Assembly: GCF_046119375.1 (NCBI RefSeq)
Contig: NW_027362763.1
Span: forward strand, 416,020,001-416,084,000
Reading direction: 5' to 3'
DNA from: Phyllobates terribilis
Taxonomy: Eukaryota
Length of the DNA: 64,000 bases
The notes under the pieces were generated by a model. The model was not told the origin of the DNA. It searched no databases and saw nothing but the letters and a program-made list of their open reading frames with translations. This document shows positions 22,059-57,093 of the stretch, piece by piece. The translations under genes and the position numbers were made by a program. Numbering within the stretch: the stretch's first letter is position 1; every line of letters begins with the position of its first letter.

Positions 22059-22177
22059 AGTACGTCCGGCCACAGCCGCCAATAACAGCTGGGTGCCGAC
22101 TAAAAAAAACGCTATTGAGGAAGACACCCCAAGAAGAGTGAGTAGTTTTAAAGATGTACTTTATGTTGTATAAGTAA

Positions 22178-23302: not shown

Positions 23303-23307
23303 ACTTC

Positions 23308-23325
23308 TGGCGTCACGAACAGGAT
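23308..23325 (+). other. Primer-binding site of Gypsy A (tRNA-Ser type)
   Basis: TGGCGTCACGAACAGGAT, 5 nt after the LTR. It is complementary to the 3' end (..ATCCTGTTCGTGACG-CCA) of vertebrate tRNA-Ser(CGA) as I recall it; not database-checked. Confidence 0.8.
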
Positions 23326-23716: not shown

Positions 23717-24784
23717 ATGGCCGACGACCAGCAAGCCGCCGGAGCACCGGTTAACGCTCCTGATGCCCAACTTGTGCCCGGCGCTGCACAGGCCGGAGTG
23801 GCCGCCCCACCAGCAGGGGTCGTGACTCCGTTGATACCTATGGCCCTTCCGTATATCCCTGGAGTGAAATGGCTTCCCCAGTATGATGGCAGACCAGACA
23901 CCCTGTCTGGGTTCAAGAGAAAAATATGCGGTGTACTGGATATGTATTCTATGATTGGTAAGCAGAGAGCCACTGTTGTGCTGGGACAATTGACTGGTGC
24001 TGCAGAGCGGGAAGTTGAAACCTGGCCAGCCGCAGACCAGGAATCAGTATCCATTATCTTTAAGAGACTGCAAACTGTGTTTGAAAACCGCACTGAGACA
24101 GATCTCCGGATGAGGTTCTACCACTGTGCCCAGAAACCTGAGGACAGTATCCGGGACTACGCCTGGCGCTTACAGGAAGCCCTGCGGGCCCTGAAACAGG
24201 TTAGTCCAGCCAGCATACAAGATGAGAATAAAATGCTGATGGAACAGTTCATCCGGGGGTGGAGGTCCCAGGAGGAGAGCAGAACTGTACGGTGGTGGGC
24301 TTTAGATCATCCAGATGCCACCTTTTACACCCTTAAGGACATGGCTATAAAGGGTCTGCAGCCCCTGGAAACAACAGATACTGCTATCCAGCGTTACCAG
24401 GGTGGGGCCACCCCAGTGCCCGCAGCACCCACTGCTCCTTCATTAACGGCTGAAACAAAGATGCAAACAGTGTCCCCTAGCGAGCTGGACAGCCTGCGCT
24501 CGAAAGTGAGTCAGCTAAGCAAAACTCTGACCACTGTCCTGAGCGCCCTACAGCTACGGATGGAGCCCGAGATGGAAGGAAGGATCCTGCTAGCTGACAG
24601 CCCTGAGGATGTCCCCTGGATGAGGAGAAGAAGGAAGGCGACGCCACCCCGTGGGAGGACCAGCGACCAACTCCGCCCGCCAAAGGAACTCATCTGCTAC
24701 CGTTGCCACAAGGCAGGCCACGCTGCCCGGACCTGCCCTTTAAACGAGAAAACCCTGGGGCCGAGGGCAGACACCCAGGAGTAG
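23717..24784 (+). CDS. gag: Gag of Gypsy A (PNMA-like capsid plus CCHC zinc knuckle), 355 aa
   Basis: Uninterrupted ORF downstream of the PBS, with a capsid-like region (QKPEDSIRDYAWRL) and the knuckle CYRCHKAGHAARTC. Confidence 0.85.
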   Translation: MADDQQAAGAPVNAPDAQLVPGAAQAGVAAPPAGVVTPLIPMALPYIPGVKWLPQYDGRPDTLSGFKRKICGVLDMYSMIGKQRATVVLGQLTGAAEREVETWPAADQESVSIIFKRLQTVFENRTETDLRMRFYHCAQKPEDSIRDYAWRLQEALRALKQVSPASIQDENKMLMEQFIRGWRSQEESRTVRWWALDHPDATFYTLKDMAIKGLQPLETTDTAIQRYQGGATPVPAAPTAPSLTAETKMQTVSPSELDSLRSKVSQLSKTLTTVLSALQLRMEPEMEGRILLADSPEDVPWMRRRRKATPPRGRTSDQLRPPKELICYRCHKAGHAARTCPLNEKTLGPRADTQE

Positions 24785-25253
24785 ACCAACCAGGCCCATC
24801 AAACTGGTACCATTGATTCGTGGGAGGAAGACCTTTCCTGTCCACTGTGCTGGATGGCATCGCGACACCTGCCTTGCTGGACACGGGATCATCATGCCTG
24901 ATGTCCTCTACAAAAGGTTCTGGTCCATAGACGAACTTCACCCGCCAGATCCAAACCTTTCTGTGTATGCCTCCAATGGCCTTCCCCTTAACCTAGTCGG
25001 GGTTAAGGATGTGGCAGTAAAGGTGGGAAGAGTGGAACTGAAGGACCAGGGACTAATTGTAGTAGAGACTAATCCTGGTGATACAGACTTGTATATGGTA
25101 CTTGGCACAAATATTGTTTGTAACTGTTTGGGAGAAGTGTTGTTCTTGCTCCAACAGATGGCCGACACTGCCAAACCAGGGCAGAGGAGGGTGCTCCAGA
25201 AAGAGATATGAGCCCTTATGTACCAGCAACAGGTAAAATTGTCAGGTGGTGAA
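24746..25253 (+). pseudogene. pol: Gypsy A pol part 1: aspartic protease (disrupted)
   Basis: The -1 frame after TTTAAAC reads ..WYH*FVGGRPFLSTVLDGIATPALLDTGS, then frameshifts to IMPDVLYKRFW..VGRVELKDQGLIVV. Confidence 0.85.
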
Positions 25254-26517
25254 TGTAGTGCCGGCGTCCCTGCCCTCTGCTAGGCAGGGACGCTGTTCCC
25301 CTCACCGCTCTGCTCCGTGCCCGGCGTCCCTCTCCCGCTCTGCTGGCAGCGCGCGCTCCTTCCCGGCCACTGTGCTTAGGGCGCGCGCGCGCGCCCTCCC
25401 TCCCTCTTAAAGGGGCCGCGCGCGCCGTCCTAAGGAGTCCCCGGCCAATGGCCGGAGGACTTTACCATATATAAGGCACCTCCTCCAAAATGGAGGTGCC
25501 CGAGCAATGTTGTTGCACCGTTCTACTCTGCTTCAGCCCTCAGGTCCCGTTGCCAGTTACCTGCCAGTTACCTGCCAGATTCCTGCCAGCTTGCTGTCCT
25601 AATCCTGCCTGATTTCCTGTTACCTGCCTGCCTGCCTGAGGTCCGACGGTCTGCCTTACAACTCCGGTCAGTCTGTCTAAGGACCAACTTGCCCGCTCAC
25701 CTGGGAGCGCACATCAGCTACCTGCCTGCTTGCCTGAGGTCCGACGGTCTGCCTTACAACTCCGGTCAGTCTGTCTATGGACCAGCTTGCCCGCTCACCT
25801 GGGAGTGCTTCTCCGCTACCTGCCTGCTTGCCTGCCCGGAGGCTCCGCTGTCACGTGCTGTGACCACCAGCTATTCCAGACTCTTGCCCGCTCACCTGGG
25901 AGCGCTTCTCCGCTACCTGCCTGCTTGCCTGCCCGGAGGCTCCGCTGTCACGTGCTGGGACCACCAGCTATTCCAGACTCTTGCCCGCTCACCTGGGAGC
26001 GCTTCTCCGCTACCTGCCTGCTTGCCTGCCCGGGGGTTCCGCTGTCACGTGCTGGGACCACCAGCTATTCCAGAGACTCTTGCCCGCTCACCTGGGAGCG
26101 CTTCTCCGCTACCTGCTTGCTTGCCTACCTGGAGGCTCCGCCGTCACGTGCTGTGACCACCTGCTATTCCAGAGACTCTCGCTTGCTCACCTGGGAGCAC
26201 ACATCCTCCATCTGCCTTGCTAGCCTACCTGGAGGTTCAGCCATCACAGGTCGTACCTACCCTTTACCTAGAGACTGCCCCGGTCACTTGCCGTGACCTC
26301 CAGCCCGTTCTTCCAGAGACTGCCCCGGTCACTTGCCGTGACCTCCAGCCCGTTCTTCCAGAGACTGCCCTGATCACTTGCCGTGACCTCCTGCCCGTAC
26401 ACCCAGAGACTGTCCCGGTCACCTGCTGTGACTGCCTGCTTGGTCGCCACCCGCTCCCTTACAAGGACCGCTCCCTTGTATAGTAGCCCAGAGGTTCCGC
26501 CTCCCAGACCCGTTACA
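25254..26517 (+). repeat. 5' LTR of element B (1264 bp)
   Basis: Near-identical to 30732-31989: about 7 substitutions and one 6-bp (GC)n indel by manual comparison. Confidence 0.97.
25443..25507 (+). promoter_or_regulatory. LTR promoter core of B: CCAAT, TATA, 9-bp hairpin and predicted start region
   Basis: GGCCAAT at 25443-25449, TATATAA at 25468-25474, stem GGCACCTCC/GGAGGTGCC at 25475-25500, and GCCCGAGCAA at 25498-25507. Confidence 0.7.
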
Positions 26518-26519
26518 GT

Positions 26520-26529
26520 TTGCTCGGGC
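26520..26529 (+). other. Self-priming PBS of element B
   Basis: TTGCTCGGGC lies just after the LTR and is exactly complementary to 25498-25507. There is no TGG-type tRNA PBS. Confidence 0.75.
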
Positions 26530-26530
26530 C

Positions 26531-27481
26531 ATGGAACCCGGTGGCACCCAAGCTCCCTCGCTCTCGGACCTGTGTCATGAACTGTCCCGTCAAAGGTCCC
26601 AACAGGAGTCCATCCTGGGTCACCTGCGGAATGTCAATACTCGCCTGGACACTCTGACTGTTCCACCAACAACCTCCGCCAGTGCCATGTCTCGCAATCC
26701 GGCAGCTCCGCTATCCACTAACACCATGATATCCTACCCCGAACCTCGGCTTTCTGCACCTCCTCGCTTCGGAGGCGACTCAGCCCAGGCTCGGGGCTTC
26801 ATAAATCAGTGCACCCTGCACTTTGAACTATTGTCCCACCAGTTTAACTCCGACCGAGCCAAAATTGCATTCATCATGTCCCATCTCACCGGGGAGGCCC
26901 TGGCCTGGCTAAATCCTCTATGGGAGAGAGGAGACCCCCTGGTGTCCAACTTGCCTGCTTTTCTCACGGCTTTCCGGAAAGTCTTCGACGAACCCGGACG
27001 GAAGACCTCATCCGCATCATCGTTGCTACGCCTCCGTCAGGAAAGTCTCACCGTGGGCCAATATGCCATACGGTTCCGTACCCTTGCCTCGGAGCTGGCC
27101 TGGGATAACGACGCTCTGGTTTCCGTCTTCTGGGAGGGTCTGTCCGGCCGTATTAAAGATGAACTTGCCGGTCGGGACATTCCTACCACTCTCGATGACT
27201 TAATAACTCTTGCCACCCGGATTGACCTACGGTTCCAGGAGCGTGCCAGAGAGGTCACCCGTGAGAGGAGGTTACCACGTCTAGCTCCTACTTTTCAGAA
27301 ACCCGTCACTCCTTCTGTCTCTAACCAGGTACACCCTCCTGAGCCTATGCAGGTCGACCAGACCAAGATGGTCAAGACCCGTCAGGACTTACGCCGTGCC
27401 GAGGGGACCTGCTTCTACTGTGGCAGTAAGGAGCACCGGATCCGTGCCTGCCCGGAGAGGTCGGGAAACGCCTGTGTCTAG
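26531..27481 (+). CDS. gag: Gag of chromovirus B (PEG10/RTL-like capsid plus CCHC), 316 aa
   Basis: Motifs LSAPPRFGGDSAQARGFINQC, LRQESLTVGQYAIRFRTLA and the knuckle CFYCGSKEHRIRAC. Confidence 0.95.
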   Translation: MEPGGTQAPSLSDLCHELSRQRSQQESILGHLRNVNTRLDTLTVPPTTSASAMSRNPAAPLSTNTMISYPEPRLSAPPRFGGDSAQARGFINQCTLHFELLSHQFNSDRAKIAFIMSHLTGEALAWLNPLWERGDPLVSNLPAFLTAFRKVFDEPGRKTSSASSLLRLRQESLTVGQYAIRFRTLASELAWDNDALVSVFWEGLSGRIKDELAGRDIPTTLDDLITLATRIDLRFQERAREVTRERRLPRLAPTFQKPVTPSVSNQVHPPEPMQVDQTKMVKTRQDLRRAEGTCFYCGSKEHRIRACPERSGNACV

Positions 27482-30400
27482 GTTCGCTCAGAGAGGTCCA
27501 CCTAGACAAGAATAAATCCTCTCCATCCCTGCTGTTGTCAGTTTCAATCGTCTACGGGGAGAACCGTTATTTCGAACTAGCCCAACTGGACTCTGGAGCA
27601 GGCGGGAATCTTATTTCACAGTCCCTGGTAGAGAAATACCGCATCCCCACCAAACCTCTGGCTGTACCCTTGTCTGTTGCTGCCGTGGATGGGGGGCTCT
27701 TACCACGCCCCATCCAACTCATCACCGAATCCATTACTCTGCAGGTGGGAATGCTGCATTCTGAAAGTATCTCCTTCCATGTTCTGCCTGGACTCTCTCA
27801 CGCCCTCTTGCTAGGCCTACCTTGGCTCCAGAAACATGCACCCGTTCTTGACTGGCAGACCGGAGAAGTCCTTCGCTGGGGACAGGGCTGCCATAAGACC
27901 TGTCTGGTTCCCGTTCATCCCGTCCGTCCTTCTCCTACCCCAGCTAATCTACCTGGACTTCCGATTCCTTATTGGTCTTATGCTGATGTCTTTAATAAAA
28001 AGGAGGCAGAGACACTACCCCCTCATAGACCATACGACTGCCCTATCGACCTGTTACCTGGTACTTCTCCTCCCCGTGGGCGTATTTATCCATTATCCGC
28101 TGCTGAGACCCAGTCGATGTCCGAATATATTGAGGAGAATCTGGCCAGGGGATTCATCCGGAAATCTACCTCCCTGGCGGGAGCAGGCTTCTTTTTCGTC
28201 AAAAAGAAGGACGGCTCTCTCCGTCCCTGTATAGACTATAGAGGCCTTAACCAGATCACGGTGAAGAATAAGTACCCCCTTCCGCTCATTCCGGAGTTAT
28301 TTGATCGTCTGAGGGGGGCTAGAATCTTCACCAAACTGGACCTCCGTGGGGCGTACAACCTGGTTCGTATCCGTCAGGGGGATGAATGGAAGACGGCATT
28401 CAACACCCGGGACGGCCACTATGAATATCTGGTAATGCCCTTTGGCCTCTGTAACGCTCCTGCCGTCTTTCAAGAGTTGGTCAATGACATCTTCCGGGAC
28501 CTTCTCTACTCCTGCGTAGTGGTGTACCTGGACGACATCTTGGTCTTCTCTCCGGATCTCCAGACTCACCGGAGGGATGTTTGTCAGGTCCTGCTCAGGC
28601 TCAGGCAGAACCATCTCTACGCTAAATATGAGAAGTGCCTCTTTGAGCAGACCTCGCTTCCGTTTCTGGGCTACATTATCTCTCAGACCGGCCTACAAAT
28701 GGATCCTGAGAAACTGTCTGCCATCGAGAAATGGCCCCGACCAGAGGGGTTGAAGGCTATTCAACGGTTCCTGGGCTTCGCCAACTATTACCGCCTCTTC
28801 ATCCCGCACTTCTCTTCCCGGACTGCCCCAATTTCCGCGCTCACCCGTAAGGGTACTAATCCCAAAGAGTGGCCGCCCGAAGCAGAGGAGGCCTTTCTTT
28901 CCCTAAAACAGGCCTTCTCTTCCGCCCCGGTGCTGCATCGCCTGGACGGCAACAAGCAGTTCTTCCTGGAAGTTGACGCCTCCTCCTCTGGAGCCGGAGC
29001 GGTACTTACTCAAAAATCATCTTCCGGGAGAATGGTAACTTGTGGCTTCTTCTCCAAACTCTTCTCCTCTTCTGAGCGCAACTATTCCATAGGAGACCGA
29101 GAGTTATTGGCCATCAAGCTGGCGTTGGAGGAGTGGTGTTACCTACTCGAGGGGGCTCTTCATCCGGTAATAATTTACACTGACCACAAGAACTTGGCTT
29201 ACCTCCAGCATGCCCAGAGACTTAACCCGCGCCAAGCCCGGTGGTCCTTGTTTTTTGCTCGCTTTGATTTTGTTCTTCATTTTCGCCCGGCTGACAAAAA
29301 CGTCAAAGCAGACGCCTTGTCCCGATCCTTTCTGGTGTCCGATCTCGAGGAAGAACCTAAACATATCATCGATCCCGCCAGAGTAATGCAGGTGGCTCCC
29401 GTGAGTCTAAATCGTCTCCCTCCCGGTAAGACGTTTGTTTCAGTACCTGATCGGGAGAAGATCCTACACTGGGGCCATTCGTCTAAACTAGCTGGCCACG
29501 CCGGTCAGAAAAAGACCCTCCAGCTTATTGCCCGGCACTATTGGTGGCCTACCCTGCACAAGGACATAATAGACTTTGTTTCTGCCTGTGTGTCCTGCGC
29601 CCGCAACAAAGTCCCGAGACATCTGCCAGCCGGACGCCTCCTTCCGCTTCCTGTACCTGCTGCCCCCTGGCAGCATATAGCAATGGACTTTATAACTGAT
29701 CTCCCCGTCTCTGCCGGTTGTACGGTCATTTGGGTGGTCGCTGACCGCTTTTCCAAGATGGCTCACTTTATTCCCCTGCCAGGCCTTCCGTCTGCACCCG
29801 AGCTGGCTAAAGACTTTATCCGCCACATCTTCTGTCTTCATGGCCTGCCCCTCCACATCGTGTCGGATCGTGGGGTACATTTCACCTCACGTTTCTGGAG
29901 AGCCACTTGTAAACTACTAGACGTCACCCTGGACTTCTCTTCCGCTTACCACCCACAGTCCAATGGTCAAGTGGAGCGGATCAATCAGAACCTGACCAGT
30001 TACCTCCGGCACTTCGTTAATGCCCACCATTCTGACTGGGTGGATCTCCTACCATGGGCCGAGTTCTCTTATAATAATCACGAGAGCGAATCCTCCTCCA
30101 AATCCCCGTTTTTTGTAGTCTTTGGTCAGCATCCTCGGATTCCTTTTCCTGTCTCCACCTCTGTGGACAACCCGGCTGCGGAATCTCTCATTAGCAAATT
30201 TTCCTCCATATGGGAGAGTACCCGGTCCGCACTCCTTCTGTCATCCGAGCGTATGAAAAGACACGCTGACAAAAAACGCCTGGATCCTCCACAATTTCGT
30301 CCAGGAGATAAAGTCTGGCTCTCATCTAAATATGTTCGACTCAAGATACCTTCTTACAAGTTAGGGCCTCGGTTCATCGGTCCTCTGGAGGTCATCAGTC

Positions 30401-30882
30401 AGATCAACCCGGTGGCCTATAAATTGAAACTCCCGGCCATCTTACGGATCCCTAACTCCTTCCATGTATCTCTCCTCAAACCCGTGGTGCTTAACTCTTT
30501 TTCCAAGTCTACAGGTACGCCTCCTGCTCCGGTTTCTGCTGAGGACGAGTTTGAGGTAGAGAACATTCTTGCCACCAAAAGGGTAAGAGGAAAGACCTTT
30601 TTTCTGGTAGATTGGAAGGGGTTTGGTCCTGAGGAGAGAACGTGGGAGCCCCGGGAGAACATCCATGCCCCTCTCATCCTAGCTAAATTTCTATCTGGCC
30701 TAAAAAAGGGGGGGCCTAAAGGGGGGGGTACTGTAGTGCCGGCGTCCCTGCCCTCTGCTAGGCAGGGACGCTGTTCCCCTCACCGCTCTGCTCCGTGCCC
30801 GGCGTCCCTCTCCCGCTCTGCTGGCAGCGCGCGCTCCTTCCCGGCCACTGTGCTTAGGGCGCGCGCCCTCCCTCCCTCTTAA
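27469..30882 (+). CDS. pol: Pol of chromovirus B, expressed by -1 frameshift (PR, RT, RNaseH, IN, chromodomain)
   Basis: Open from the GGGAAAC site. Motifs LDSGA, VVYLDD, EVDAS/RELLA/TDHKNL, H-x6-H..CVSC, MDFITD/SDRG/QVER and FEVENIL..VDWKGFGPEERTWEP. Confidence 0.95.
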   Translation, partial: RLCLGSLREVHLDKNKSSPSLLLSVSIVYGENRYFELAQLDSGAGGNLISQSLVEKYRIPTKPLAVPLSVAAVDGGLLPRPIQLITESITLQVGMLHSESISFHVLPGLSHALLLGLPWLQKHAPVLDWQTGEVLRWGQGCHKTCLVPVHPVRPSPTPANLPGLPIPYWSYADVFNKKEAETLPPHRPYDCPIDLLPGTSPPRGRIYPLSAAETQSMSEYIEENLARGFIRKSTSLAGAGFFFVKKKDGSLRPCIDYRGLNQITVKNKYPLPLIPELFDRLRGARIFTKLDLRGAYNLVRIRQGDEWKTAFNTRDGHYEYLVMPFGLCNAPAVFQELVNDIFRDLLYSCVVVYLDDILVFSPDLQTHRRDVCQVLLRLRQNHLYAKYEKCLFEQTSLPFLGYIISQTGLQMDPEKLSAIEKWPRPEGLKAIQRFLGFANYYRLFIPHFSSRTAPISALTRKGTNPKEWPPEAEEAFLSLKQAFSSAPVLHRLDGNKQFFLEVDASSSGAGAVLTQKSSSGRMVTCGFFSKLFSSSERNYSIGDRELLAIKLALEEWCYLLEGALHPVIIYTDHKNLAYLQHAQRLNPRQARWSLFFARFDFVLHFRPADKNVKADALSRSFLVSDLEEEPKHIIDPARVMQVAPVSLNRLPPGKTFVSVPDREKILHWGHSSKLAGHAGQKKTLQLIARHYWWPTLHKDIIDFVSACVSCARNKVPRHLPAGRLLPLPVPAAPWQHIAMDFITDLPVSAGCTVIWVVADRFSKMAHFIPLPGLPSAPELAKDFIRHIFCLHGLPLHIVSDRGVHFTSRFWRATCKLLDVTLDFSSAYHPQSNGQVERINQNLTSYLRHFVNAHHSDWVDLLPWAEFSYNNHESESSSKSPFFVVFGQHPRIPFPVSTSVDNPAAESLISKFSSIWESTRSALLLSSERMKRHADKKRLDPPQFRPGDKVWLSSKYVRLKIPSYKLGPRFIGPLEVISQINPVAYKLKLPAILRIPNSFHVSLLKPVVLNSFSKSTGTPPAPVSAEDEFEVENILATKRVRGKTFFLVDWKGFGPEERTWEPRENIHAPLILAKFLSGLKKGGPKGGGTVVPASLPSARQGRCSPHRSAPCPASLSRSAGSARSFPATVLRARALPPS
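30700..30730 (+). other. Polypurine tract of element B
   Basis: A6-G7-cctaaa-G8-ta immediately before the 3' LTR. Confidence 0.85.
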
Positions 30883-31989
30883 AGGGGCCGCGCGCGCCGT
30901 CCTAAGGAGTCCCCGGCCAATGGCCGGAGGACTTTACCATATATAAGGCACCTCCTCCAAAATGGAGGTGCCCGAGCAATGCTGTTGCACCGTTCTACTC
31001 TGCTTCAGCCCTCAGGTCCCGTTGCCAGTTACCTGCCAGTTACCTGCCAGATTCCTGCCAGCTTGCTGTCCTAATCCTGCCTGATTTCCTGTTACCTGCC
31101 TGCCTGCCTGAGGTCCGACGGTCTGCCTTACAACTCCGGTCAGTCTGTCTAAGGACCAACTTGCCCGCTCACCTGGGAGCGCACATCAGCTACCTGCCTG
31201 CTTGCCTGAGGTCCGACGGTCTGCCTTACAACTCCGGTCAGTCTGTCCAAGGACCAGCTTGCCCGCTCACCTGGGAGCGCTTCTCCGCTACCTGCCTGCT
31301 TGCCTGCCCGGAGGCTCCGCTGTCACGTGCTGTGACCACCAGCTATTCCAGACTCTTGCCCGCTCACCTGGGAGCGCTTCTCCGCTACCTGCCTGCTTGC
31401 CTGCCCGGAGGCTCCGCTGTCACGTGCTGTGACCACCAGCTATTCCAGACTCTTGCCCGCTCACCTGGGAGCGCTTCTCCGCTACCTGCCTGCTTGCCTG
31501 CCCGGGGGTTCCGCTGTCACGTGCTGGGACCACCAGCTATTCCAGAGACTCTTGCCCGCTCACCTGGGAGCGCTTCTCCGCTACCTGCCTGCTTGCCTAC
31601 CTGGAGGCTCCGCCGTCACGTGCTGTGACCACCTGCTATTCCAGAGACTCTCGCTTGCTCACCTGGGAGCACACATCCTCCATCTGCCTTGCTAGCCTAC
31701 CTGGAGGTTCAGCCATCACAGGTCGTACCTACCCTTTACCTAGAGACTGCCCCGGTCACTTGCCGTGACCTCCAGCCCGTTCTTCCAGAGACTGCCCCGG
31801 TCACTTGCCGTGACCTCCAGCCCGTTCTTCCAGAGACTGCCCTGATCACTTGCCGTGACCTCCTGCCCGTACACCCAGAGACTGTCCCGGTCACCTGCTG
31901 TGACTGCCTGCCTGGTCGCCACCCGCTCCCTTACAAGGACCGCTCCCTTGTATAGTAGCCCAGAGGTTCCGCCTCCCAGACCCGTTACA
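30732..31989 (+). repeat. 3' LTR of element B (1258 bp)
   Basis: TGTAGTGCC...CCGTTACA, followed by the TSD GTGAA. Confidence 0.97.
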
Positions 31990-32968
31990 GTGAAATTGGT
32001 AATGTACGGGTGACAGACCCGATGCTCACTGTGATACCCCCGTTAAGCGAAATGTTGATTTGGTGTAGGGCAGCAATAGGTCTCAGGGGACAGAACTACC
32101 AGGCGGTAGTAGAGTCCATTAGCTCAGAGCACAGACCTACACTGTTAACTGCCAGAGGGGTAGTTGACGTATGCAATGGGAGGGTACCCATCCGTCTCCT
32201 AAATTATGGAGAAGAGGAAGTTAAATTGCCACGATACGCCACGGTTGCCAGATTATATACTGTGGACAATAGCGACATACACACAGTAGAGTCCTTAACC
32301 TCATCAGACACAGTGGAGGGTAATGACTCAGACACCCAGGTGGGGGATTGGTGTCAACAGCTCCATGTTGGGACTGACGCCACTCCTGTCCATCAAAAAG
32401 AAGGTGTACACAGGGTGGTCCAGGAATACGAACAGGTATTCAGAAAACACCCACTTGATTTTGGGAGGATTAAAGGGGTACAACACCATATACCCACAGG
32501 TGACCATCCACCCATCAAAGAACGTTACAGGCCTATACCACCAGCACACTACCAGAAATCGAAGGAAATGTTGCATGACATGAAGAAAGCTGGGGTAATA
32601 AGAGATAGCTGTAGCCCCTGGGCAGCTCCCCTGGTCCTGGTCAGGAAAAAGGATGGAAGCATGAGGATGTGTGTAGATTACAGACAGGTAAATCGCATAA
32701 CACATAAAGATGCATACCCTTTGCCCCGTATAGAGGAATCCCTGGCTGCACTAAAGTCTGCAAATTACTTCTCTACGCTTGACCTCACTAGTGGGTACTG
32801 GCAAGTAGCAGTTGCTGAGGAGGACCGGGAGAAGACAGCCTTCACTACCCCGACGGGACTCTGCGAGTTCAACAGTATGCCGTTCGGACTCTGCAACGCC
32901 CCTGGAACGTTCCAGAGATTGATGGAGTGCTGTTTGGGACACTGTAACTTCGAGACCGTGCTGCTATA
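31990..32968 (+). pseudogene. pol: Gypsy A pol part 2: PR-RT linker and reverse transcriptase, cut at the Tyr of YxDD
   Basis: SPWAAPLVLVRKKDGSMRMCVDYR, DLTSGYWQV, MPFGLCNAPGTFQRLM..ETVLLY, then a Tc1 TIR. Confidence 0.9.
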
Positions 32969-33198
32969 CAGTACAGACCAAAAGATTGGACACACCTTCT
33001 CATTTAAAGATTTTTCTGTATTTTCATGACTTTGAAAATTGTACATTCACACTGAAGGCATCAAAACTATGAATTAACACATGTGGAATTATATACTTAA
33101 CAAAAAAGTGTGAAACAACTGAAAATATGTCTTATATTCTAGGTTCTTCAAAGTAGCCACCTTTTGCTTTGATGACTGCTTTGCACACTCTTAGCATT
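32969..33198 (+). mobile_element. Tc1 terminal fragment (one TIR only)
   Basis: TA followed by CAGTACAGACCAAAAGATTGGACACACC; it ends abruptly at about 33198. Confidence 0.8.
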
Positions 33199-33367
33199 AG
33201 TTAGACAATTGAAAAAAGCCTTGGACAGGCTGAAACGTCTTGTGTGAGTTGTGGAATAAATCAACTGATTATCAACACGTGAGTGCCGGGATTTTCTTTT
33301 CCTACAGACATTGTTTTCCACGTGCACCACTCTAGCTATACGGAGTGCCGACTATTCCTTTTTGATA
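33199..33367 (+). mobile_element. Probable Penelope-like element terminal-repeat/tail remnant
   Basis: Hammerhead-like motif, then AATAAA (33256-33261), then GTGAGTGCCG, an order that resembles PLE tails. Confidence 0.55.
33201..33247 (+). ncRNA. Minimal type I hammerhead-ribozyme-like motif (U3-A8 core variant)
   Basis: Stem I TTAGACAA/TTGTGTGA, core TTGAAAA(A), stem II AGCCT-tggac-AGGCT, GAA, palindromic stem III ACGT, and a GUC cleavage triplet at 33237-33239. Confidence 0.6.
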
Positions 33368-34314
33368 CTCATTACATACAAACACCTCCACCCTTCCACC
33401 TCACACCACCAGAGTGACCCTGGATAGGGATATATATATGGAGGGTGGAGCCAGACAGCTCAGTTTGTTGTGAGTCAGACTGAGAGAGAGAGTCTGAGAG
33501 CGTGCTGGGTTCTGAGGGCCCTGAGTGTGGCGGAAGGCAAGAGGAGAAAGGAGAGAGGAGTTGAGGGGGCAGAGGAGCATCATAGGCTCACCCCGATATA
33601 CAAACCGGACACCGGGTCTGTGCCTACAGGGTCCCTTTATACCCAATAGGGATTACCGGCATTCCAGGAGGACTACAAGTCCCTGGACGACCAGAAGCTA
33701 GACCCATTACAGGACCAGGAACCACAAGGCCCCAGCGTCCAGGGAGAGTGGTTACCAGCAGAAGGTCCTACTACCGAGCAACAGGTGAAGGAACAGCATG
33801 ACACATAAGCTAGGCCCTGTTGCAGGCTGGCCAGGAGCATACAGAGAGGCAGACACAGACCAGGAGGCCTTATACCCGCTCACTGGGGAGAAGTCCTGAA
33901 GTGCAGCCACCTTACTGAGTACCCTGGACCGTACCTGACATCTGCACCAGTAAAGGTATTGAAGCGAATCCCCTGTCTCTGTCAGTTACTCCTGCTACGC
34001 CACCCCGCCTGCACTACAAGCCCCAGCATCACCACTATCAAACTCCACACTGCCCCGGGGGCCCGCTCCACCTGTGGGGAGCAGAAACACCTCAGCTGCC
34101 ATCCCATCACCCCCCGGAGGTCTGCAGCAGCACTGGTAAACCTTACCAGGTACCACAGGTGGCGTCACAAACTTTATAAACCCCCCCTATAAATAAAAAA
34201 AACCCTTTTTATTGTCCGCCCTGGGTCACGGACCGGGCCAGCCACCATGATATCCCCCACCAGCATCCATAGGCCCGGCTGCCGAGTAACCCCCACGGCC
34301 TAGGGGGTGTGTCA
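33368..34314 (+). repeat. 3' LTR of Gypsy A (first ~70 bp missing)
   Basis: Colinear with 22318-23302, with scattered substitutions and a ~35-bp deletion. Ends GTGTGTCA, followed by the TSD GCTC. Confidence 0.9.
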
Positions 34315-35048
34315 GCTCCACAGTACAGGTCCAATTCTTTTAACAATATTTTTTTTCTCATAGGTTCCACTCCTGTTTTTTGCTTACAAACACTGATGAA
34401 ACACTGACCAAAAAAAACCTGACCTACAAATTAGGCCTTACTGTGAATTGATAGAGGCAACTCCCCCCACCATCTCCCAATCAAGGCCTCTTTCTAACAA
34501 CCAAAGTTGTTAGAAGTTTATTGGGAATTCTGCTGTATTTCAGTTGTGGTGACGCTGCAGGGAAATTATTCACCCACAGATTATAGCTAACATCTGGTGA
34601 GGGCTGTTTGTAATTATTTTATCAATCTAACAAAAGGCATTATCTAAAGTGAATAATCCCATTAAAACCCTGTTGATCCATCTGTCATTGTTTCTACTAG
34701 AGAGCATTTTGCTTTTCAGTAGCTTTGATCATTGGTCATATGCCGAGTCGGCTGCCTTGGAATTTGGGCTCAATTTTGATAAACAGTGAAGTTATAGGTC
34801 CTTATGACAGCAGCTTACCTGAAAAGAACCCAAAGGACACTTCCTGTAATGCAATGCATAGAAAAAGGTCAACCAGTATAATAAGCCAAGCAAGTGTCAA
34901 TGCTATGGCCAGTTTACCAGAGTGTATAGACTATAAATTGTAGATCACGTAATCAAATAATTAAAATCCTATAAGAATTCTCAGTTGAGAACATGTTCAG
35001 TATTTTTTCAGCTGTGTTCCGGTTCACTGCAGGAAACGTGTTATTATA

Positions 35049-47059: not shown

Positions 47060-47470
47060 AATGGCCCGCACTAGCCCTCCAAACAGTATAATGGCCCCCA
47101 CACAGCCCTCCAAACAGTATAATGACCCCCACACAGCATAATGGACCCCACACAAACCTTCACACCGTATTGCTTTCATACAGTATAATGGCCCCCCACA
47201 TAGCCCTGAAAATATTATAACGGCCCCACATAGCCTTCCATATAGTATAATACGCTACCCATAATCCTCCATATAGTAAAATGCGCCCCCGATAATCCTC
47301 GATATAGTACAATGCGCCCCCCATAATCATCCATATAGTATAATGAACTTCCCATTGTCCTCCATAGAATATAATGCACTCCCCATAGTCCTCCATACAG
47401 TATATTACACACCCCATAGGGTAAAATGCTGCCCCCATATAGTATAATACACCCCACAGTCCTGCAGTAT
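47060..47470. repeat. ~30-bp minisatellite (cagtataatggcccccacatagccc), related in reverse to 3140-4942
   Basis: Recurring (c/t)agtataatg..ccccc..(t/g)agcc/tcc units. Confidence 0.8.
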
Positions 47471-47619
47471 TATGGGCACCACGTTCTCACTGATTGTAAA
47501 ATACCGTATATTTTAAATAAGCCGACCCGAGTATAAGCCGAGGCCCCTAAGGCCACAAAAAACTGGGAAAACGTATTGACTCGAGTATAAGCATAGGGTG
47601 GGAAATGCAGCAGCTACTG

Positions 47620-48285
47620 GTACATTTCCCCCTCCTGGTACGCATGGCTCCCTCATCACCAATCCTGGTATGTATGGCACCTCTCATCCCCCAATCCTGG
47701 TACGTTTGGCACCCCTCATCCCCCAATCCTGGTATGCTTGGCCTCCTCACCCCCAAATCCTGGTATGTGTGACCCCCTCATCCCCCAATTCTGGTATGCA
47801 TGGCACCCCTCACCCCCAATCCTGGTATGCATGGCACCCCTCATCCCCAATCCTGGTAGATATGGCACCCCTCATCCCCCAATCCTGGAATGCATGGCAT
47901 CCCTCATCCCCAATCCTGGTATGTATGGCACCCCTCATCCCCCAATCTTGGTATGCATGGCCTCCTCATCCCCCAATCCTGGTATGTATGGCACCCCTCA
48001 TCCCCCAATCCTGGTGTGCATGGCCTCCTCATCCCCCAATCCTGGTATTTATGGCACCCCTCATCCCCCAATCCTGGTATGCATGGCATCCCTCATCCTC
48101 CAAACCTGGTATGCATGGCACACCTTATCCCTCAATCCTGGTATGCATGGGCTCCTCATCCCCCAATCCTGGTATGTGTGGCCCTCTAATCCCCCAATCC
48201 TGGTATGTGTGGCCCCATCATCCCCCAATCCTGGTATGTGTGGCCTCCTCATCGCCCAATCCTGGCATGCATGGCCCAATCACTG
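47620..48285. repeat. 31-32 bp minisatellite, reverse complement of the 17360-19320 array (~20 units)
   Basis: Unit cccctcatcccccaatcctggtatgcatggca. Confidence 0.93.
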
Positions 48286-49369
48286 CACACATAAAACAAA
48301 TAAACACTTATACACACCTGCCTTCCTCACCTCTGTTCCAGCACTGCGTCCTGTCTGCCAGCAGCTCATGTCAGCATCTGAGCAGCGCAAACTCTCAGAT
48401 GCTGCTGTGAGCTGCCGGCATATTCACTCCTCTCCACACTGGGACTATGGGCATGGAAAAGAGTGAATATGTATTCTCTTTAGCAGCGGGCACTGTCAGC
48501 AGGAGCCGTGGCTCAGTGCTCCTCTGTGCCCGCTGCTGAAGAGAATGAATATTCATTCTTCTCCACACCCATGGGAGTAGGGAAGAAGGAATAGTCATTT
48601 CCCTTTAGCAGTGGGCACACGTAGTAGCTGCAGCAGCGGCTACTGCGTGTGCCTGCTCCTCCGCCGCCACAACCTCCCCTCCCCCTGTAAATACAATACT
48701 CAACTATCCTCCTCGTTCCCCTGCTGCTTCGGTGCCCCCTGGCTCATGGGCTTCCCCCGCCTCATGGGCCCCATAGCAGTGGCGTGGCCTGCCGCCATTG
48801 GCGGTACGCCACTGGCAATGGAGCTCTGAGAAGCTACCTTCTGTTACAGCCTACCCCAACTAGGTGCTTCCAAGAGCATCATAGTAGATTGTCCTCTAGA
48901 TCTGCACATGTCTCTGTAGGCACTTGTGACCACTAGGTCATCATTACCACTGGCAGACAGTCAGGAGAGGGACCCGGTGCAAGAACAATACATGGACTAG
49001 TGATGAGCGAACATGCTCGCCACTGCTCGGTACTTGCCCGAGCATCAAGGTACTTGACAAGCTCAGCGCTCGGTGAGTATTTCCGGGTTGCTCGGGCCGG
49101 AACTCGGGTCTCCGTCCTGCATGTTTGGCGCTCTTTAGAGAGCCAATGAACATGCAGGGATTGCTTGCCACGCACTGTAATGCCATAGCCATGTTGGTTT
49201 TGGGCATTACAGTGATTGGCTGGCCGCACAGCGTCAGCAGGTCTATATAAGACCTGGCGCCGCTATGCTCGTCACAGTCTACCCCGGAATCAGGCAGAGT
49301 AGGGAGAGATGCTGCTGAGTCAGGGAGAGATTTGCTTGTTTATAGTTAGTATAGGTATTCCACAACATA

Positions 49370-49505: not shown

Positions 49506-51978
49506 ACATTGAACGTTCTGTCTGCTGCTGCTGTTCTTAAAGATATTTGTATACATAGTCCCAGGTTTCAGGGACCAGGGCAAATTTTATTTGCTCTTAA
49601 TCCTGGTTATTTGCTTAAAAACCAAGGCAGGCAGGGTATGTGACGGACTGCAGTGCATGATACAGCACAAGAGGGTCCATTGCATGTTCAACTTCTGACT
49701 GATCGTGCCTTGACAAATATTTGTAGACATAGCCCCAGGTATCATGGGCCAGGGCACATTTTTTTTTATCTTAATCATGGCTATTTTCTTAAAAAGCAAT
49801 CCATTTTTCTGCTCCATTTGCTTGTTAGCACTGCAGAATACAGCCAGATCTTTTCCATATTACAGCGATAAAAATCCTGAAACTTGAACTGAACGTGGAA
49901 AATATTGGCCTCCTTTTCCATTTTGTTGCAGTGTGTCAGTCAAGCTATTTAAACTTGATCTCTGTGAAGAATAGTATTAGTAAACTACAGGCCTGCTATT
50001 TAAAACCGTGGTTCTCTGTCAGACGTATCACATAAAACAGCGTTCCAAAATCAGCCATTTCTGGCTTCCATTTCGTTGCAGTGTGTCGGTCAAGCTAGTC
50101 ACACTAGGTCTCTGTGAAGAATAGTATTAGTAAACTACAGGCCTGCTTTTTAAAAGTGTAGTTCTCTTTCAGACGTATCACATATAACAGCGTTCCAAAA
50201 TCAGCCATTTCTAGTGAACGTGGAAAATATTGTCCTCCATTTAAAATGGGCAAGGTGCGTGGCAAGGGATGGGGAAGTGGACGTGATGGTGATGGTGCAT
50301 GCGGAGGCCGAGGACGTGGCCGTGGGCAAGCTGAAATTGTGACACAACAAACACCCACATCTTGTCGCTCGACCTTCCTGTCCCAATTACTAGGGGACCA
50401 CTAGCCCACCACTATTGAACACAGAGCAGTGTCAAAAGGTTGTTTGTTGGATAGCAGATAATACTTCCAGTCACTTTGCCGCCACCACTACCACCCTGTC
50501 TTCCGCACGGTCAAGCCTCAGTAGCCATGAGTCTGGACCACATATTCCTCATCCTGTTCCTCCTTCCTCCCACCGTGCCCGGAGACAACTGATCCCACAC
50601 TTGGACACTCAGAAGAGCTGCTCACTTTTCCCTTTGTAGATTCGGGCTTCTCGCCCGGCCAGCTTCAAGCAAGTCAAGAGGAGAACGCAAATATTTGAGC
50701 AGCCACGGTCACGAAGGTAACTGACTCAACCTGGCAGGGGGACATGCAGAGCGAGGACAGCAGCACACAGGTGGGGGGAGGCATAGCACTACAACAGGCA
50801 GGAAGAAGCAGTGTGGTGGCCACAGACACAAGGCAGGGAAGCGTTCCCCGTAACGCCAACACGACGGAAGTTGCCAGTACAACTGTTAGGTTTTCCCGAG
50901 TCTGGTTGTTTTTGAAGACTCTGCAGATAAACCCAAAAAGGCCATTTGCACCACCTGCCAGGCCATCATCAGCAGGGGTAGCAAAACTAGCAGCCTTACC
51001 ACCACCAGCATGATCAGGCGCATGGCAGAAAAGCATCCGACTAAGTGGGCTGAACCCCAGGGTCCAGAAACAGTGTCTGCAGGTGATACCACTGCTTCTT
51101 CAGCTGTTGTGCGTGCACGCCAATCCCCTGTCCATGGAGCATGCGAAGATGCCTCCCTCCCTGCACGTGTAGTTGGACACTTTCAACTAGCACCATCAGC
51201 AAGCACATTCACGTCCTTGTCCCAGCGCAGCATTCAGTTGTCCCTACCCCACTCGTTGGAACGCAAGCGCAAATACGCAGCCAACGCTCCACAGGCCACA
51301 CTACTAAATTCACACATTTTGCGAATGCTTGCGCTCGAAATGTTGCCTTTTAGGCTCATGGAGATGGAAGCTTTCCACAACCTGATGGCAGCGGCCGTCA
51401 CTCGGTACTTGGTCCCCAGCCGCCACGATTTCTCCCAGTGTGCCGTCCCCGCATTACACGAGCAGAGCACGTGTCCCCCAACATTAGCCATGCCCTCAAC
51501 AACGCAGTTACTGGAAAAGTCCACCTAACCACGGACACGTGGACAAGTGCTTGTGGGCAAGGATAGTACATCTCGCTGACGGCACACTGGGTTAATATAG
51601 TGGGAGCCGGGACCCAGTCGGACCTTGGGACGTAACACGTCCTCCCGACGCCGAGGATTGCGGGCCCTAGATCAATCAGGGTTGCCCCCACATTCTACAG
51701 CTCCCGCTCCTCCTCCTCCTCTTCAGCCTCCATCTGCGAAATGACCACATCAGTCACAAGCTGGAAGCACTGCAGCACTGCCTTGGCCAAGCGACAACAG
51801 ACTGTGCTGAAGCTAATATGCTTAGGTGACAAACCGCACAACGCTGAAGAGTTGTGGACGGCTCTGGAAGAGCAGGCAGATCTGTGGCTGACACTGCTGA
51901 CCCTACAGCCAGGTATGGTTGTGTGTGACAATGGCTAGAACCTGGTGGTGGCTCTGAAGCGAGGTGAGCTCACACACG

Positions 51979-52963
51979 TGTGGCACCCCTGAGGGTAGGA
52001 GGTATAACAGTAAGGAACCATCTTGGTTCAGGGAGTGGGGAGAGTTCAGTTCCAGTCAGTCAGACTGAGGTGCTGACAGGGGGCAGAGGCTCTGTATGAG
52101 CTCTGCTCCACCGGCAGGCCTAGCCAGGAGGCCTGAGCCTGAAGGAGAAAGGAGAGGAAAGAGGGAACAGGAAGGCTCCCGGACGAGGAGTGAAGGGACC
52201 CTAGGGGTACGGGCCGTGCAGCAAGCCACCCGTACGCCCGCCGCTGCCAGGAGGTAGGGGGGTCAGGCCAGAGAAGGGGAACCGGGTCCCCCAGCCAGCA
52301 GAGACTACAGGACTCAACTGGGAACCGGAGGCTGCAGCACTTCAAGTACAGCAGGCCGCCCACACCAGCCACTAGGAAAGTAGCCACATAGGGCCAGGGG
52401 ACGGAACACACGTCGCCTGCCAAGGCCCGAGGACACTGGACAGAGGTGCCTCTAGGTGTGAGGTACAAGGAGAGAGGCCAGAGAGGACACACTGAAGGGG
52501 GTCCTGCTAAATGCTCCAGAGCTACCTGGGAGTCGGCTGAGCCCCTTACTCGGTAAACACAGGATGACCCGGGAAGTTATAAACCTGCAGTAATAACTTG
52601 GAGTGAAAGAACTGTGAGTAAAGACCATGAGACTGCATTGCAAAGACTCCGCGTTGTCATTACTGATTCCCTGCACTACCACCACCATCATCCACCCACG
52701 CTGCCCTGAAGCTACACTCCACCTGTGGGGAGTCACACCGCCTAGTTGCACATACCACCAGCTTCAGCGGACTGCTACGCAGCGGCGGTTACCGATAACC
52801 GCAATCCACAGGTGGCGTAGTCGGACATTAATATTTGTGCACATAGACTACTACCCTGGTTTGACCGCCCTGGGTCACGGACCGGGTCACCGCCACGGTG
52901 ACTGCAACCCCCAGCATCTACAGGCCCGGCTCCGGGTACCCCCACGGCCCAGGGGGCACATCA
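51979..52963 (+). mobile_element. Solo LTR (985 bp)
   Basis: TGTGGCACCCC...GGGGGCACATCA. 4-bp TSD CACG at 51975-51978 and 52964-52967. The empty site gctcacacacgtacc is seen in hAT copy 2. Confidence 0.92.
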
Positions 52964-54037
52964 CACGTACCATACCTGGCCCATGTGCTTAACCTCGTGG
53001 TTCAGCGGTTTCTCAAAACGTACCCGGATCTGCCGGATCTGCTTGTCAAAGTACGCCGCCTGTGTGCCCATTTTAGAAAGTCAGCTACAGCTTCCGCTGC
53101 CTTTGCTGTGCTTCAGCAGAGTTGGCAGCTTCCAGCTCACTGACTGGTGTCACCATGCGTTGGAACTCTACATTGCAGATGTTGGGAAGGATTTGTGTGC
53201 AGAACAGGGCAGTTGTTGACTACCAGCATCAACAAGGCCGTCAGTATTCAGTTCAGACTCCACAAATAAGACCTCAGGGGTGGACATGTATGTCAGACAT
53301 CTGTACCATCCTCCAAAACTTTGAGGACTCCACCAAGATGGTGAGCGGCGATGACGCCATAATTAGCATCACCCGCTTCTTTGTCTTCTGAAACTCTATC
53401 TGCTCACAATTAAAGAGGTTGCATTGCAGGCGGAGCACGATGAGATGGAGCAAGGAACCATACAGAGGAATTTCATCTCAACGTGGATTGGGTGACAATG
53501 AGGAAGAGGAGGAGGAAGAACAGGAGCTAGTTTCCTGCGCTATAGACCGTACTACCTTCACAACTATCATACCGTCTGTTCAGCTTAGATAGCCTAAGAA
53601 CAGGGAGGAGGAGGAGGAAGATGAGGAGGAGAGCATGGTCAGTTGTCCTCTTGATGAGGACATGGAAGTCTTACCTGTTAGCAGTCTGGCACACATGGCT
53701 CAGTTTATGTTATGCTGCCTTTCCCGTGACCCTCGCGTTATCCAAATTTTGGGTGACAGTCATTTATGGTTGGTGACACTTCTAGACCCTTGCTACAAGG
53801 AAAACTTTCTGCCTCTTATTCTCGCGCTGGACAGGCCTAATAAAATGGGGCAGTACCAGAATGCCCTTGTTGCGGAATTATTTAAAAAATTCCCATCTGA
53901 AAACACTGGCGGCAGAGATCACAGTTCGTTGGACAACCAAGGAGTACAGACGAGAGAGACACAAATCCAATCCAGCAAAGGCAGGGGAATACTGTCAAAG
54001 TTCTGGGACAGTTTTCTCAGACCCTCCCATTGCACAG

Positions 54038-54850
54038 TGCAAACCACAGAAAAAGGTATAAAGAAACTACAGTATTGACAAGTATAATTCATAAATTTTA
54101 TTAGATTCAAAAACAAACAATTAAAAAGCAGACTACAAAACAAAAATTAAAAAATATGAGTAAAACATGATTAAAATACAGCTCAGGAGGGGGGGAGGGG
54201 GATGCTCACAATAAATATTAAACATGGATCACCTATATAAAAAATATATATATGTATTTGAATGGCAACCAAATTTAATTCATAGTAGTTGATTAAACAT
54301 ACATAATTACCTCTAATAGCAGCATAATATTAATATATCAAAAAACAATATATATAAATAAATGTAAAGTGCTTGTGCAGTAAATATATATACATATATG
54401 TGTAATTAATTGCCAAATACTGGATTATGAGAGGGAAAAGAAAACTCTAATGATTAACTACTGCTATGAGAATAAAGCGCTAATGAAAGATTTTGGCCGC
54501 AAAAAATCCAGTCCTATTATATGTAAACCCTCTAAACAGGGAATTATCTAAATATTTTAACAAATAAAGGAGACCATGATTATAAAAAATGAGATTGGAG
54601 ACATACCCTGGCCCCCTCACACCACTCCTGTATTTTAATCATGTTTTACTCATATTTTTTAATTTTTGTCTTGTAGTCTGCTTATTAATTGTTTGTTTTT
54701 GAATCTAATAAAATTTATGAATTATACTTGTCAATATTGTAGTTTCTTTATACCTTTTTCTGTGGTTTGCATTGTGAGTTTTGAGGTATTTATATATTTA
54801 TATATATATTTTTTTAAACTTGTGGTATTTCCTTCTTTTATAGGATCTAT
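54038..54850. mobile_element. Unclassified 813-bp AT-rich foldback insertion with a 15-bp TSD
   Basis: TSD CCTCCCATTGCACAG at 54023-54037 and 54851-54865. Inverted arms of ~144 bp at 54038-54181 and 54628-54771, plus a 79-bp unpaired tail. Confidence 0.85.
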
Positions 54851-55610
54851 CCTCCCATTGCACAGGCCCTGATTCGTGGGGTACTCTCACAAGGAGGAAC
54901 AAGTTTCGGAAGATGCTGAAGCAGTATCTTGCTGACCGTACCAACGTCCTCCGTGATTCCTTTGTGCCTTATAATTATTGGGTATCCAAGCTGGAGACGT
55001 GGCATGAACTGGCTCTCTACGCCTTGGAGGTCCGGGCCTGCCCTGCTGCTAGCGTTTTCTCAGAGCGGGTTTTTAGGGCCCTTGTTGGAATTATAACTGA
55101 TAAGCGCATCCGCCTGTCAACTGAAAAGGCTGACAGGCTGACTCTTATAAAAATGAACAAGGGCTGGATTGGGCCAGACTTCTCAACACCACCGAATGAT
55201 AGCAGCGTATCATAAACTCAAATACTCTATTCCCATGCACCTCTGTCTTCACACCTAGACATGGGTATATGCTTCCAGATTTTGTCTATTTGCTCTTGTA
55301 CTCCTCCTCCTTCTCCTCATCCTCCACCACCATATCACCACCATATCTACCATATCACCATATCTACGTCTCTTTCAAGGGGCATTGGAGTTCCTCCAAA
55401 TTTTTGGCAGCCATTATATTCACTGCATAGGCATACAGTATGGGAGACCCATTTCCTGATAATGGGAACATTGTTTTCAGGAGGCCCTCTGACCTCTACG
55501 TCTCTTGCAAGGGACATTGGAGTGCCTCCAAATTTTTGGCAGCCGTTTTAGTAACTACATATTCAAGAAGAGTACGGGAGACCGTCTCCTTTTAAATGAG
55601 AACATGTCGT

Positions 55611-56130
55611 TACTGTGGACCAGCTCTATGTGTCTTTAAATTGTTAGTGGTTTTTTTTCTAAATTTTGGCAGCCGTTGGACTCACTGCATACCCTATACC
55701 TGTATAGCAGACCCTCCGCTTTCTAATGGGAATATGTCATTACTGTGGCCCAGCTCTATGTGTCTTTAAATTGTTAGTGGGGTTTTTCCTAAATTTTGGC
55801 AGCCGTTAGACTCACTGCATACTCTATAACTGTATAGCAGACCCTCTGCTTTCTAATGGGAACATGTCGAAACTGTGGCCCAGCTCTATGTGTCTTTAAA
55901 TTGTTAGTAGGGTTTTTCATAAATGTAAGCAGCCGTTGAATTCCGTGCATACCCTATAACTGTATAGCAGACCCTCTTCTTTCTAATGGGAACATGTCGT
56001 TACTGTGGCCAGCTCTATGTGTCTTTAAATTGTTATTGGTGGTATTTCCCAAATTTAGGCAGCCCTTGCAGTCACTGCATGGGCATTACCACTATAGGAG
56101 ACCCACTCCTTTATAATGGGAACATTTTTT
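55611..56130. repeat. 130-bp tandem repeat x4 in the 3' subterminal region of hAT copy 3
   Basis: (t/a)actgtgg(a/c)c recurs at 55611, 55741, 55871 and 56001. Confidence 0.9.
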
Positions 56131-57093
56131 TACTGAGACCCTCCTCTATGTCTCTTCAAAGGGGTATTGGGGTGCGTCCAAATTTTTGGCAGCTCTTGCA
56201 CTCACTGCATACGCAATAACAGTATAGGAGACCCACTCTTTAATAATGGGAACAACAAAGCATAGCCGAATGCTGGCCCTTTAAGAATAGTAAGGGCAGT
56301 CGGATGGTAAAAATAGTGTTTGTGATTTTCAGAGTCCCTTCTTCATAAATGAAACAGGATGTGTCTGACGGTGAGTCACACACCACTTGGCCAGATAAGG
56401 TTGTAAAATGTTAAAATTACATTTCCCGGTGAATGCATTTTTCACCGTTGGAAGCAATGCAAAAGTGCAAAAACCCATCAAAAACGCTAGGTCTGAACAT
56501 AGCCCAAGGTGTGGAGGAGCATTTTTGTTTTTGGTTATTTACTTTGCCTTATATACAAGTCATTACCCCGGAAAGGATGTTCCTTACCATTTTTCCCAGG
56601 AAAATCCATTATGGTTTGGTGTTTGTATGTTTTATTGTGAGTCCGTAAAAGTGGCTTAATACCTCTGACAACATTGTTGACAGCAGCGACTTGAGTCAGA
56701 GATGCTTCCAGGGGTCTTCCCTATGCTGTTCCCATGTCATTTGAGCACTGTTACCATCGATTTGGGCAATTTTTAGGCCCTCTTCAGACTGCCGGGGGAA
56801 GCCGCCGGAAAAATATTTGAGTTTCCCATAGATTTACATTAGGCTCGTTGCTCGGACCGATCACTCACGCATTTCAATTTGCTCGACCCGAGCAATGAGC
56901 ACCCGATCATTTTAGTGCTTGCTCATCAATAATATGGACTCTTTGCAGCCCAAAACCTCATCATAATGGACAATTCAAACGGCTTGGAAGGTTGAATTGG
57001 CCCCCTTACCTCTTGGGACCCTATATAGCCACACAGGTTGCACCAATGATATGTCCGCCCCTGGCCATTACCTTTCAAAGAATTTCTCCTAGA

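Follow-up and report, generated by a model that had tools for sequence, protein, structure and literature searches.

Three families of long terminal repeats (LTRs) in a 64,000-nt stretch of the Phyllobates terribilis genome (hereafter the window) carry within the LTR a short site complementary to the 3′ end of a tRNA-Ser, directly adjoining a predicted RNA pseudoknot. Taken together, site and knot suggest a part of the copying machinery for which we found no prior description. A PBS (primer-binding site) copy inside such LTRs was not found described in the literature covered, outside of which lay subscription journals, repeat-database reports and preprint supplements. Families P and M are represented by solo LTRs and the third by a damaged full-length copy (22249–34314, hereafter the host element); all three are assigned to a Ty3/Gypsy retrotransposon lineage of frogs whose Gag is of the PNMA type. 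The coordinates are collected in Table 1.

Table 1. Features of the three LTR families, in positions of the window; structural features refer to solo LTR P.
Feature	Position	Strand	Remarks
Solo LTR, family P	51979–52963	+	TG...CA; target duplication CACG at 51975–78 and 52964–67
Putative poly(A) hexamer AGTAAA, solo P	52617–52622	+	starts 347 nt before LTR end
Helix H1, 8 bp	52706–52767	+	52706–13/52760–67; pairing probability 0.00–0.07 in pseudoknot-free folding
Hairpin H2 (pseudoknot stem 1)	52716–52733	+	5 bp; 8-nt loop of 1 nt plus 7-nt strand 52722–28; layout in 4/4 copies
Hairpin H4, 7 bp	52785–52802	+	pairing probability 0.93–0.97 in 4/4 copies; 3 nt ahead of pseudoknot 3′ strand
CCACAGG, 3′ strand of predicted stem 2	52806–52812	+	pairs with 52722–28
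Inner tRNA-Ser (UGA-type) site, solo P	52813–52824	+	12 nt; complement of CCA, discriminator and acceptor strand, plus 1 nt beyond
Hypervariable A/C-rich spacer	52828–52860	+	39–53% identity between families
Conserved terminal U5 module	52861–52963	+	71–83% identity between families; 7-bp closing stem 52868–74/52948–54; ends at real LTR end
Solo LTR, family M	21042–22058	−	target duplication TACT; structured domain 21301–21191
Inner site, family M	21179–21190	−	UGA-type with two CpG-type transitions; 137 nt before LTR end
5′ LTR of host element	22249–23302	+	target duplication GCTC; first letters TT; structured domain 23041–23147
Inner site, host 5′ LTR	23148–23160	+	11/13 identical to own PBS
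True 18-nt PBS of host	23308–23325	+	5-nt spacer after LTR; tRNA-Ser, taken to be of CGA type
PNMA-type Gag of host	23717–24784	+	Pfam PF14893 match at cut-off (25 bits)
Broken aspartyl protease region of host	24805–25199	+	between Gag and RT
Linker and truncated RT of host	31990–33011	+	resumes past nested insertion
3′ LTR of host	33368–34314	+	first ~70 nt missing; inner site 34160–34172, 12/13 identical to PBS

All three insertions (solo P, solo M and the host element) are flanked by 4-nt target duplications, and both ends of solo LTR P are fixed by a paralogous copy of the flanking element near 7804–8164, which is uninterrupted at the insertion point. Reading from the LTR bounds confirms what the initial annotation had proposed for family P, namely CCACA-GG-TGGCGTAGTCGG at 52806–52824 with 139 nt between the 12-mer and the LTR end. 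The CpG-decayed counterpart it had described near the end of solo M was likewise recovered, and this site differs from that of P at two positions, each of them a G-to-A change and each at a CpG. A BED-finger (hAT-like) element with 130-nt internal repeats is present in several long, diverged copies in both orientations (1–9750 and 49585–56930), and solo LTR P sits within one of these copies. Long arrays of 31-nt units (17350–18950 and 47190–48470), also in both orientations, yield spurious long open frames.

The host element is ordered Gag, protease, reverse transcriptase (RT) and stops inside RT near 33011; the closest named relatives of its Gag are frog proteins. In the Gmr1-like clade the integrase lies ahead of RT, and an assignment of the host element to that clade was rejected on its protease-RT order and the lack of an integrase match between the two. 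A nested chromodomain Gypsy element (25254–31989) is located between protease and RT, with an open pol frame of 1150 aa and LTRs of ~1.26 kb, which are ~99% identical and hold tandem repeats of 97–99 and 45 nt. The host element itself lies in the middle of an inverted-repeat element with 80% complementary flanks (22173–22248 and 34315–34442), and between its two LTRs there are 3 gaps and 46 differences in 987 aligned columns. Directly after its PBS a tandem duplication of ~26 nt (23315–23370) repeats PBS nt 8–18, the second copy being at 23341, and the tail of the first copy is predicted to fold back onto the PBS; a partial PBS repeat is likewise found just 3′ of the PBS in the metagenomic locus L011. 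The host LTR terminus GCGTCA consists of the letters of PBS nt 3–8 and is predicted to pair with PBS nt 1–6 across the 5-nt spacer (23297–23313). The LTRs of all three families end in TCA, not ACA.

In the alignment of the homologous LTRs the inner sites of the solo and host copies occupy one and the same column, beginning 149–155 nt before the LTR end. The host inner sites correspond to PBS nt 1–13, with two mismatches in the 5′ LTR and one in the 3′ LTR; these lie at different positions, and each of the 13 positions is matched by at least one of the two LTRs. The match ends at nt 12–13 in all four copies, with neither a full 18-nt match nor a T-arm match. The initial annotation had tied the inner site to the primer of each family, and this tie is borne out for the host family, the only one in which a PBS is visible (inner and outer site agree in 1/1 family); families P and M, known as solo LTRs, would be primed by a UGA-type tRNA-Ser. 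It had furthermore stated that the position is kept while the type of tRNA-Ser changes. The position stands, and the two types, aligned with a 1-nt gap, differ at ~4 positions rather than at all six distal ones.

In pairing energy each inner site favours its own tRNA type over the other one, with −24.5 vs −16.1 kcal/mol in solo P, −12.5 vs −9.8 in solo M, and −15.7 vs −5.1 and −18.6 vs −8.8 in the host LTRs. For the full host PBS the pairing energy is −33.9 kcal/mol, for the best inner site the −24.5 of solo P. The UGA-type motif with up to two mismatches is found three times in the 64 kb (shuffle mean 1.86, three being reached by 30 of 100 shuffles) and the host-type 13-mer three times as well (shuffle mean 0.79, 4 of 100 shuffles). 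Since 64 kb can well contain the motif by chance at two mismatches, it is the position, and not the count, that carries the argument.

We take the host PBS to be of the tRNA-Ser(CGA) type, a label for which literature look-ups gave no confirmation. For the solo LTRs the match had been assigned to tRNA-Ser(AGA/TGA), the AGA isoacceptor presumably having the same 3′ end as UGA. The UGA part is secured by published transcription templates of human tRNA-Ser(UGA), which start with an 18-mer whose first part is the 12-mer (available excerpts of PMC7449687 and PMC3299991). The five supplementary files of PMC12853362 and the four of PMC4131045 contain none of the motifs, and the accessible portions of PMC3212995, PMC10202947 and PMC3424704 contain nothing relevant to the inner site.

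Between families, identity amounts to 52–59% in the first 600 nt of the LTR (51% in shuffles), 63–76% in the 120-nt domain preceding the site and 71–83% in the last 100 nt, the terminal module of P being 83% like that of the host. As the site is flanked by two shared modules of one ancestral LTR, its tRNA match would have changed later. On sequence grounds this shared architecture speaks for a site that arose once, possibly when the LTR was extended a single time, and was retuned afterwards. The initial annotation had argued against a one-off duplication; the architecture common to both flanks of the site gives no indication of repeated duplications.

A poly(A)-like hexamer (AATAAA in solo M) starts 347, 347 and 368 nt before the LTR end in the three families, ~195–215 nt upstream of the inner site, and a TATA-like box is located ~130 nt into two of the three LTRs. 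Judged by the hexamer positions only, the inner site would be located in a long U5; a second AATAAA follows the site in the host family. This AATAAA lies just 3′ of the inner site (23175–23200 and 34185–34212) and is folded back on a T-rich stretch in a predicted hairpin, which looks like masking; in the solo families no AATAAA follows the site. The CCACAGG ahead of the site reads as an LTR-end-like CA plus 2 nt, followed by TGG, and solo P starts with TGTGG, a perfect inverse of CCACA (4/5 in the host).

The layout upstream of the site is that of a predicted H-type pseudoknot with flanking hairpins, which recurs in all four copies with a first loop of 1 nt and a second stem of 7 bp. A 1-nt first loop together with a 7-bp second stem is H-type pseudoknot geometry. 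Stem 2 is paired 7/7 in three copies and 6/7 in solo M, its 3′ strand adjoins the TGG of the site in 4/4 LTR copies, and H1 encloses H2. One base pair of H1 is A-U in solo P and G-C in solo M, both sides having changed, and H4 of the host has another sequence than in the solo LTRs and is still paired 7/7. Pseudoknot and H4 occur jointly in 0, 4, 0 and 0 of 4000 dinucleotide shuffles per copy, numbers that refer to pseudoknot features chosen after inspection in three related families, which are not independent samples.

Folding z-scores of the whole U5 are weak (−0.4 to −1.3), and in pseudoknot-free folding the inner site of solo P is mostly paired (unpaired 0.2). With control partners slid along the sequence, some G-rich stems, namely host H1 and the terminal stem, still came to 6/7 pairs. 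In the predicted host fold PBS nt 1–12 are paired and nt 13–18 open, the latter being the part that is missing from the inner site. Pairings with a downstream 'anti-site' differ from copy to copy and were left out of the evidence. A search of Rfam 15 for ribozymes, riboswitches and IRES elements gave no match at gathering score, only chance-level matches of 14–16 bits.

Contigs of four public runs were aligned to 52640–53010. The bin 52809–52821, which covers the inner site, is the deepest LTR bin in three of the four runs and the second deepest in the fourth, and two bins further on, in the spacer, the depth is down 200- to 500-fold; summed contig depth is no copy number, and the assembly word length may have narrowed the peak, which is ~31 nt wide. 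The inner-site peak stands out more sharply, ~5-fold above the terminal module, in the two runs guessed to be RNA. To the extent that contigs show it, the inner site is not missing from most relatives. None of the 40 variant rows listed of 107 falls in the site or in stem 2. Fifteen of these 40 listed rows lie in 52700–52827, 11 of them outside the four helices, three keeping a wobble pair and one breaking the loop-closing pair of H4. The depth shows no drop at CCACA, nor is a loose end at this position among the 24 listed of 438, so that LTRs ending there would form no large class; contigs drop rare forms. The same 24 loose ends listed of 438 (read pile-up) include no LTR-to-PBS junction, and no RNA data set is listed as containing the LTR. 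One contig links the LTR end back to the start of the terminal module through an A-rich spacer, which suggests a tandem duplication of the module, and a high-depth contig of 725 nt, from a run guessed to be RNA, begins at the terminal module and extends beyond the LTR end.

No close relative was found in viral, metagenome or prokaryote collections, nor did a word-indexed homolog search give a homolog. In viral contigs the host PBS gave one unrelated match, and none was obtained with the UGA-type PBS, with the inner motif or with Gag and RT. A metagenome scan for inner plus outer site gave 23 loci, 22 of which were judged chance matches in GC-rich DNA; the remaining one, L011, has an LTR-like junction, its upstream match being a GGC run. 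Prokaryote genomes contained the inner motif nowhere and the 18-mer 41 times, mostly by chance as judged. Thirteen loci were examined further (12 of the 41 18-mer matches and L011), and nine of them encode Gypsy proteins beside the UGA-type 18-mer.

These nine (L027, L033, L042, L051, L058, L059, L060, L063 and L065) are contigs from bacterial bins which combine Gypsy proteins with the tRNA-Ser PBS-type 18-mer and are probably contamination by animal host DNA. Four of the nine match Gag relatives at 21–28% identity, and the distant loci have the same UGA-type 18-mer as their PBS, behind CA-to-PBS spacers of mostly 1–4 nt (5 nt at the real end of the host LTR). An upstream inner site with fewer than three mismatches is present in none of the nine. 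By these sequences the lineage can use a UGA-type primer, and the inner site reads as a later addition. The host element resembles PNMA-Gag Ty3/Gypsy elements in Gag family, protease-RT order, tRNA-Ser PBS and 4-nt target duplication, and differs from the distant Ser-primed loci in its inner site.

We tentatively favour, with somewhat less than even confidence, that an old U5-PBS module has been kept as a non-priming docking site for tRNA, which follows the primer. An older U5-PBS module would have been enclosed once, as the LTR end shifted ~150 nt downstream, and then retained; such an enclosed module is suggested by the succession of CA, 2 nt and TGG and by the inverse of CCACA at the start of solo P. 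In genomic RNA the primer tRNA would be held at the inner site by its CCA end and acceptor strand and would stack on the pseudoknot helix. The site would serve as a dock rather than as a primer because it is without a T-arm match and starts at the base of a helix, where extension would meet the knot. The docked tRNA may then be opened and passed to the tighter-binding full PBS of 18 nt, and a change of Ser isoacceptor in a family would entail a change of the inner site. In this sequence of events the folding, the tRNA binding and the hand-off are all conditional. It counts against a dock that the distant Ser-primed relatives manage without an inner site.

An elaboration modelled on the bacterial T-box goes further and appears unlikely: the knot would stack on the CCA end, admit only uncharged tRNA-Ser of the right type, open the acceptor stem and hand the tRNA to the masked PBS via its six open nt, dock and PBS switching tRNA together. 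In the T-box antiterminator a UGGN beside a helix pairs with the NCCA end of the tRNA under coaxial stacking, an arrangement which would favour uncharged tRNA. T-boxes are bacterial, pair 4 nt without opening the acceptor stem and read the anticodon. The frog site shares with them the UGGN next to a helix and differs by its length of 12–13 nt and by the absence of an Rfam match.

The same LTR-end-like geometry, textbook in its CA plus 2 nt plus TGG, also fits a relic of a former LTR end and PBS, which is occasionally primed and rewritten by the plus-strand tRNA copy, with no selection for a second role needed. The inverse of CCACA at the start of solo P and the short CA-to-PBS spacers of the distant relatives, as compared with the real end of the host LTR, agree with such a relic, and a change of several positions in one step comes more readily from templated copying than from stepwise selection. 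We nevertheless consider it possible but rather doubtful, as copying of the tRNA would be expected to leave as many as 18 nt where 12–13 are seen, and short 3′ LTRs form no large class by the absence of a depth step at CCACA and of a loose end among the 24 listed of 438. Moreover, a neutral remnant is unlikely to retain compensated helices at 63–76% identity or to track a tRNA change. Tracking of the primer would likewise be expected if the exposed partial site acted as a decoy or regulatory target, soaking up host 3′ tRNA fragments that otherwise block the PBS, or tuning expression. Such fragments (3′-tRFs) act via the PBS, and their repression can be seed-independent (available part of PMC12853362), on which account an argument that the site lacks a fragment seed and hence is no target was dropped. 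The sharper inner-site peak in two runs would also suit a decoy, but their RNA label is a guess; a 12–13-nt site binds more weakly than the PBS, and the start of the site at a helix base is left unexplained, so that we regard a decoy as improbable.

Similarly low is the probability we give to a tRNA-Ser site unlinked to the primer. Since an outer PBS is visible in the host alone, P and M may have a host-type PBS, as the resemblance between the terminal modules of P and host would allow, and the second tRNA might serve folding, dimerisation or packaging. Dimers bridged by tRNA have been proposed for Ty1 and Ty3 (accessible text of PMC3681743 and PMC11381356). Against this stands the agreement of inner and outer site in the one family showing both. 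Finally, a conserved protein-binding site at the DNA level, the tRNA match being partly accidental, seems very improbable. Such a site would be what we take to be an E-box, CAGGTG, or a CTCF-like CAGGTGGCG core; the core is found both in P and in the 3′ LTR of the host, and the LTR end has a G-rich core resembling it. A protein site leaves unexplained the paired changes in H1, H4 and stem 2 as well as the correspondence, in each family, of the distal 6–7 nt to an actual tRNA end, and solo M breaks the E-box.

Among known systems, the frog site is likened to the primer activation signal (PAS) and the A-rich loop of HIV-1 and other retroviruses, which are additional tRNA-complementary elements upstream of the PBS. 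According to the available sections of PMC11181671, the tRNA bound at the PBS pairs through its T-arm with the PAS and through its anticodon with the A-loop, and both elements must co-adapt with the PBS. In contrast, the frog site pairs with the CCA end, so that one tRNA is unable to hold the inner site and PBS nt 1–12 together, and the T-arm complementarity of a PAS is absent from a match that stops at nt 12–13. Second sites for the primer tRNA are present in other Ty3/Gypsy elements, namely Drosophila gypsy (PMC1635307) and Ty3 with its bipartite PBS (PMC11381356). As far as the accessible parts of both sources describe them, these sites are located near the RNA 3′ end, use other tRNA arms and bridge the ends, and that of Drosophila gypsy is dispensable for cDNA synthesis. 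The frog inner site instead repeats the acceptor-end match (PBS nt 1–13) inside the LTR, ~155–160 nt upstream of the PBS.

A pseudoknot in the 5′ region of the RNA is found in a further LTR retrotransposon, the Copia element Ty1, where it is required for reverse transcription and, in the accessible text of PMC3681743, is not described as adjoining a second PBS. The frog knot, as predicted, is formed within U5 and runs up to the tRNA site. We infer that the frog site works like the auxiliary tRNA elements but fails their defining pairing, as it repeats the CCA-end match.

How LTR elements choose, open, retain and switch their primer is known from few models, i.e. HIV, Ty1, Ty3 and Drosophila gypsy. 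The frog LTRs add a natural vertebrate lineage of great abundance, each copy of which lets a second CCA-end site and a predicted conserved knot be read beside the PBS, so that primer switching and co-adaptation become testable from genomes alone. Furthermore, each solo LTR leaves behind a tRNA-complementary site, which is normally missing from solo LTRs, and these residual sites may have effects on the regulation of host transcripts by tRNA fragments.
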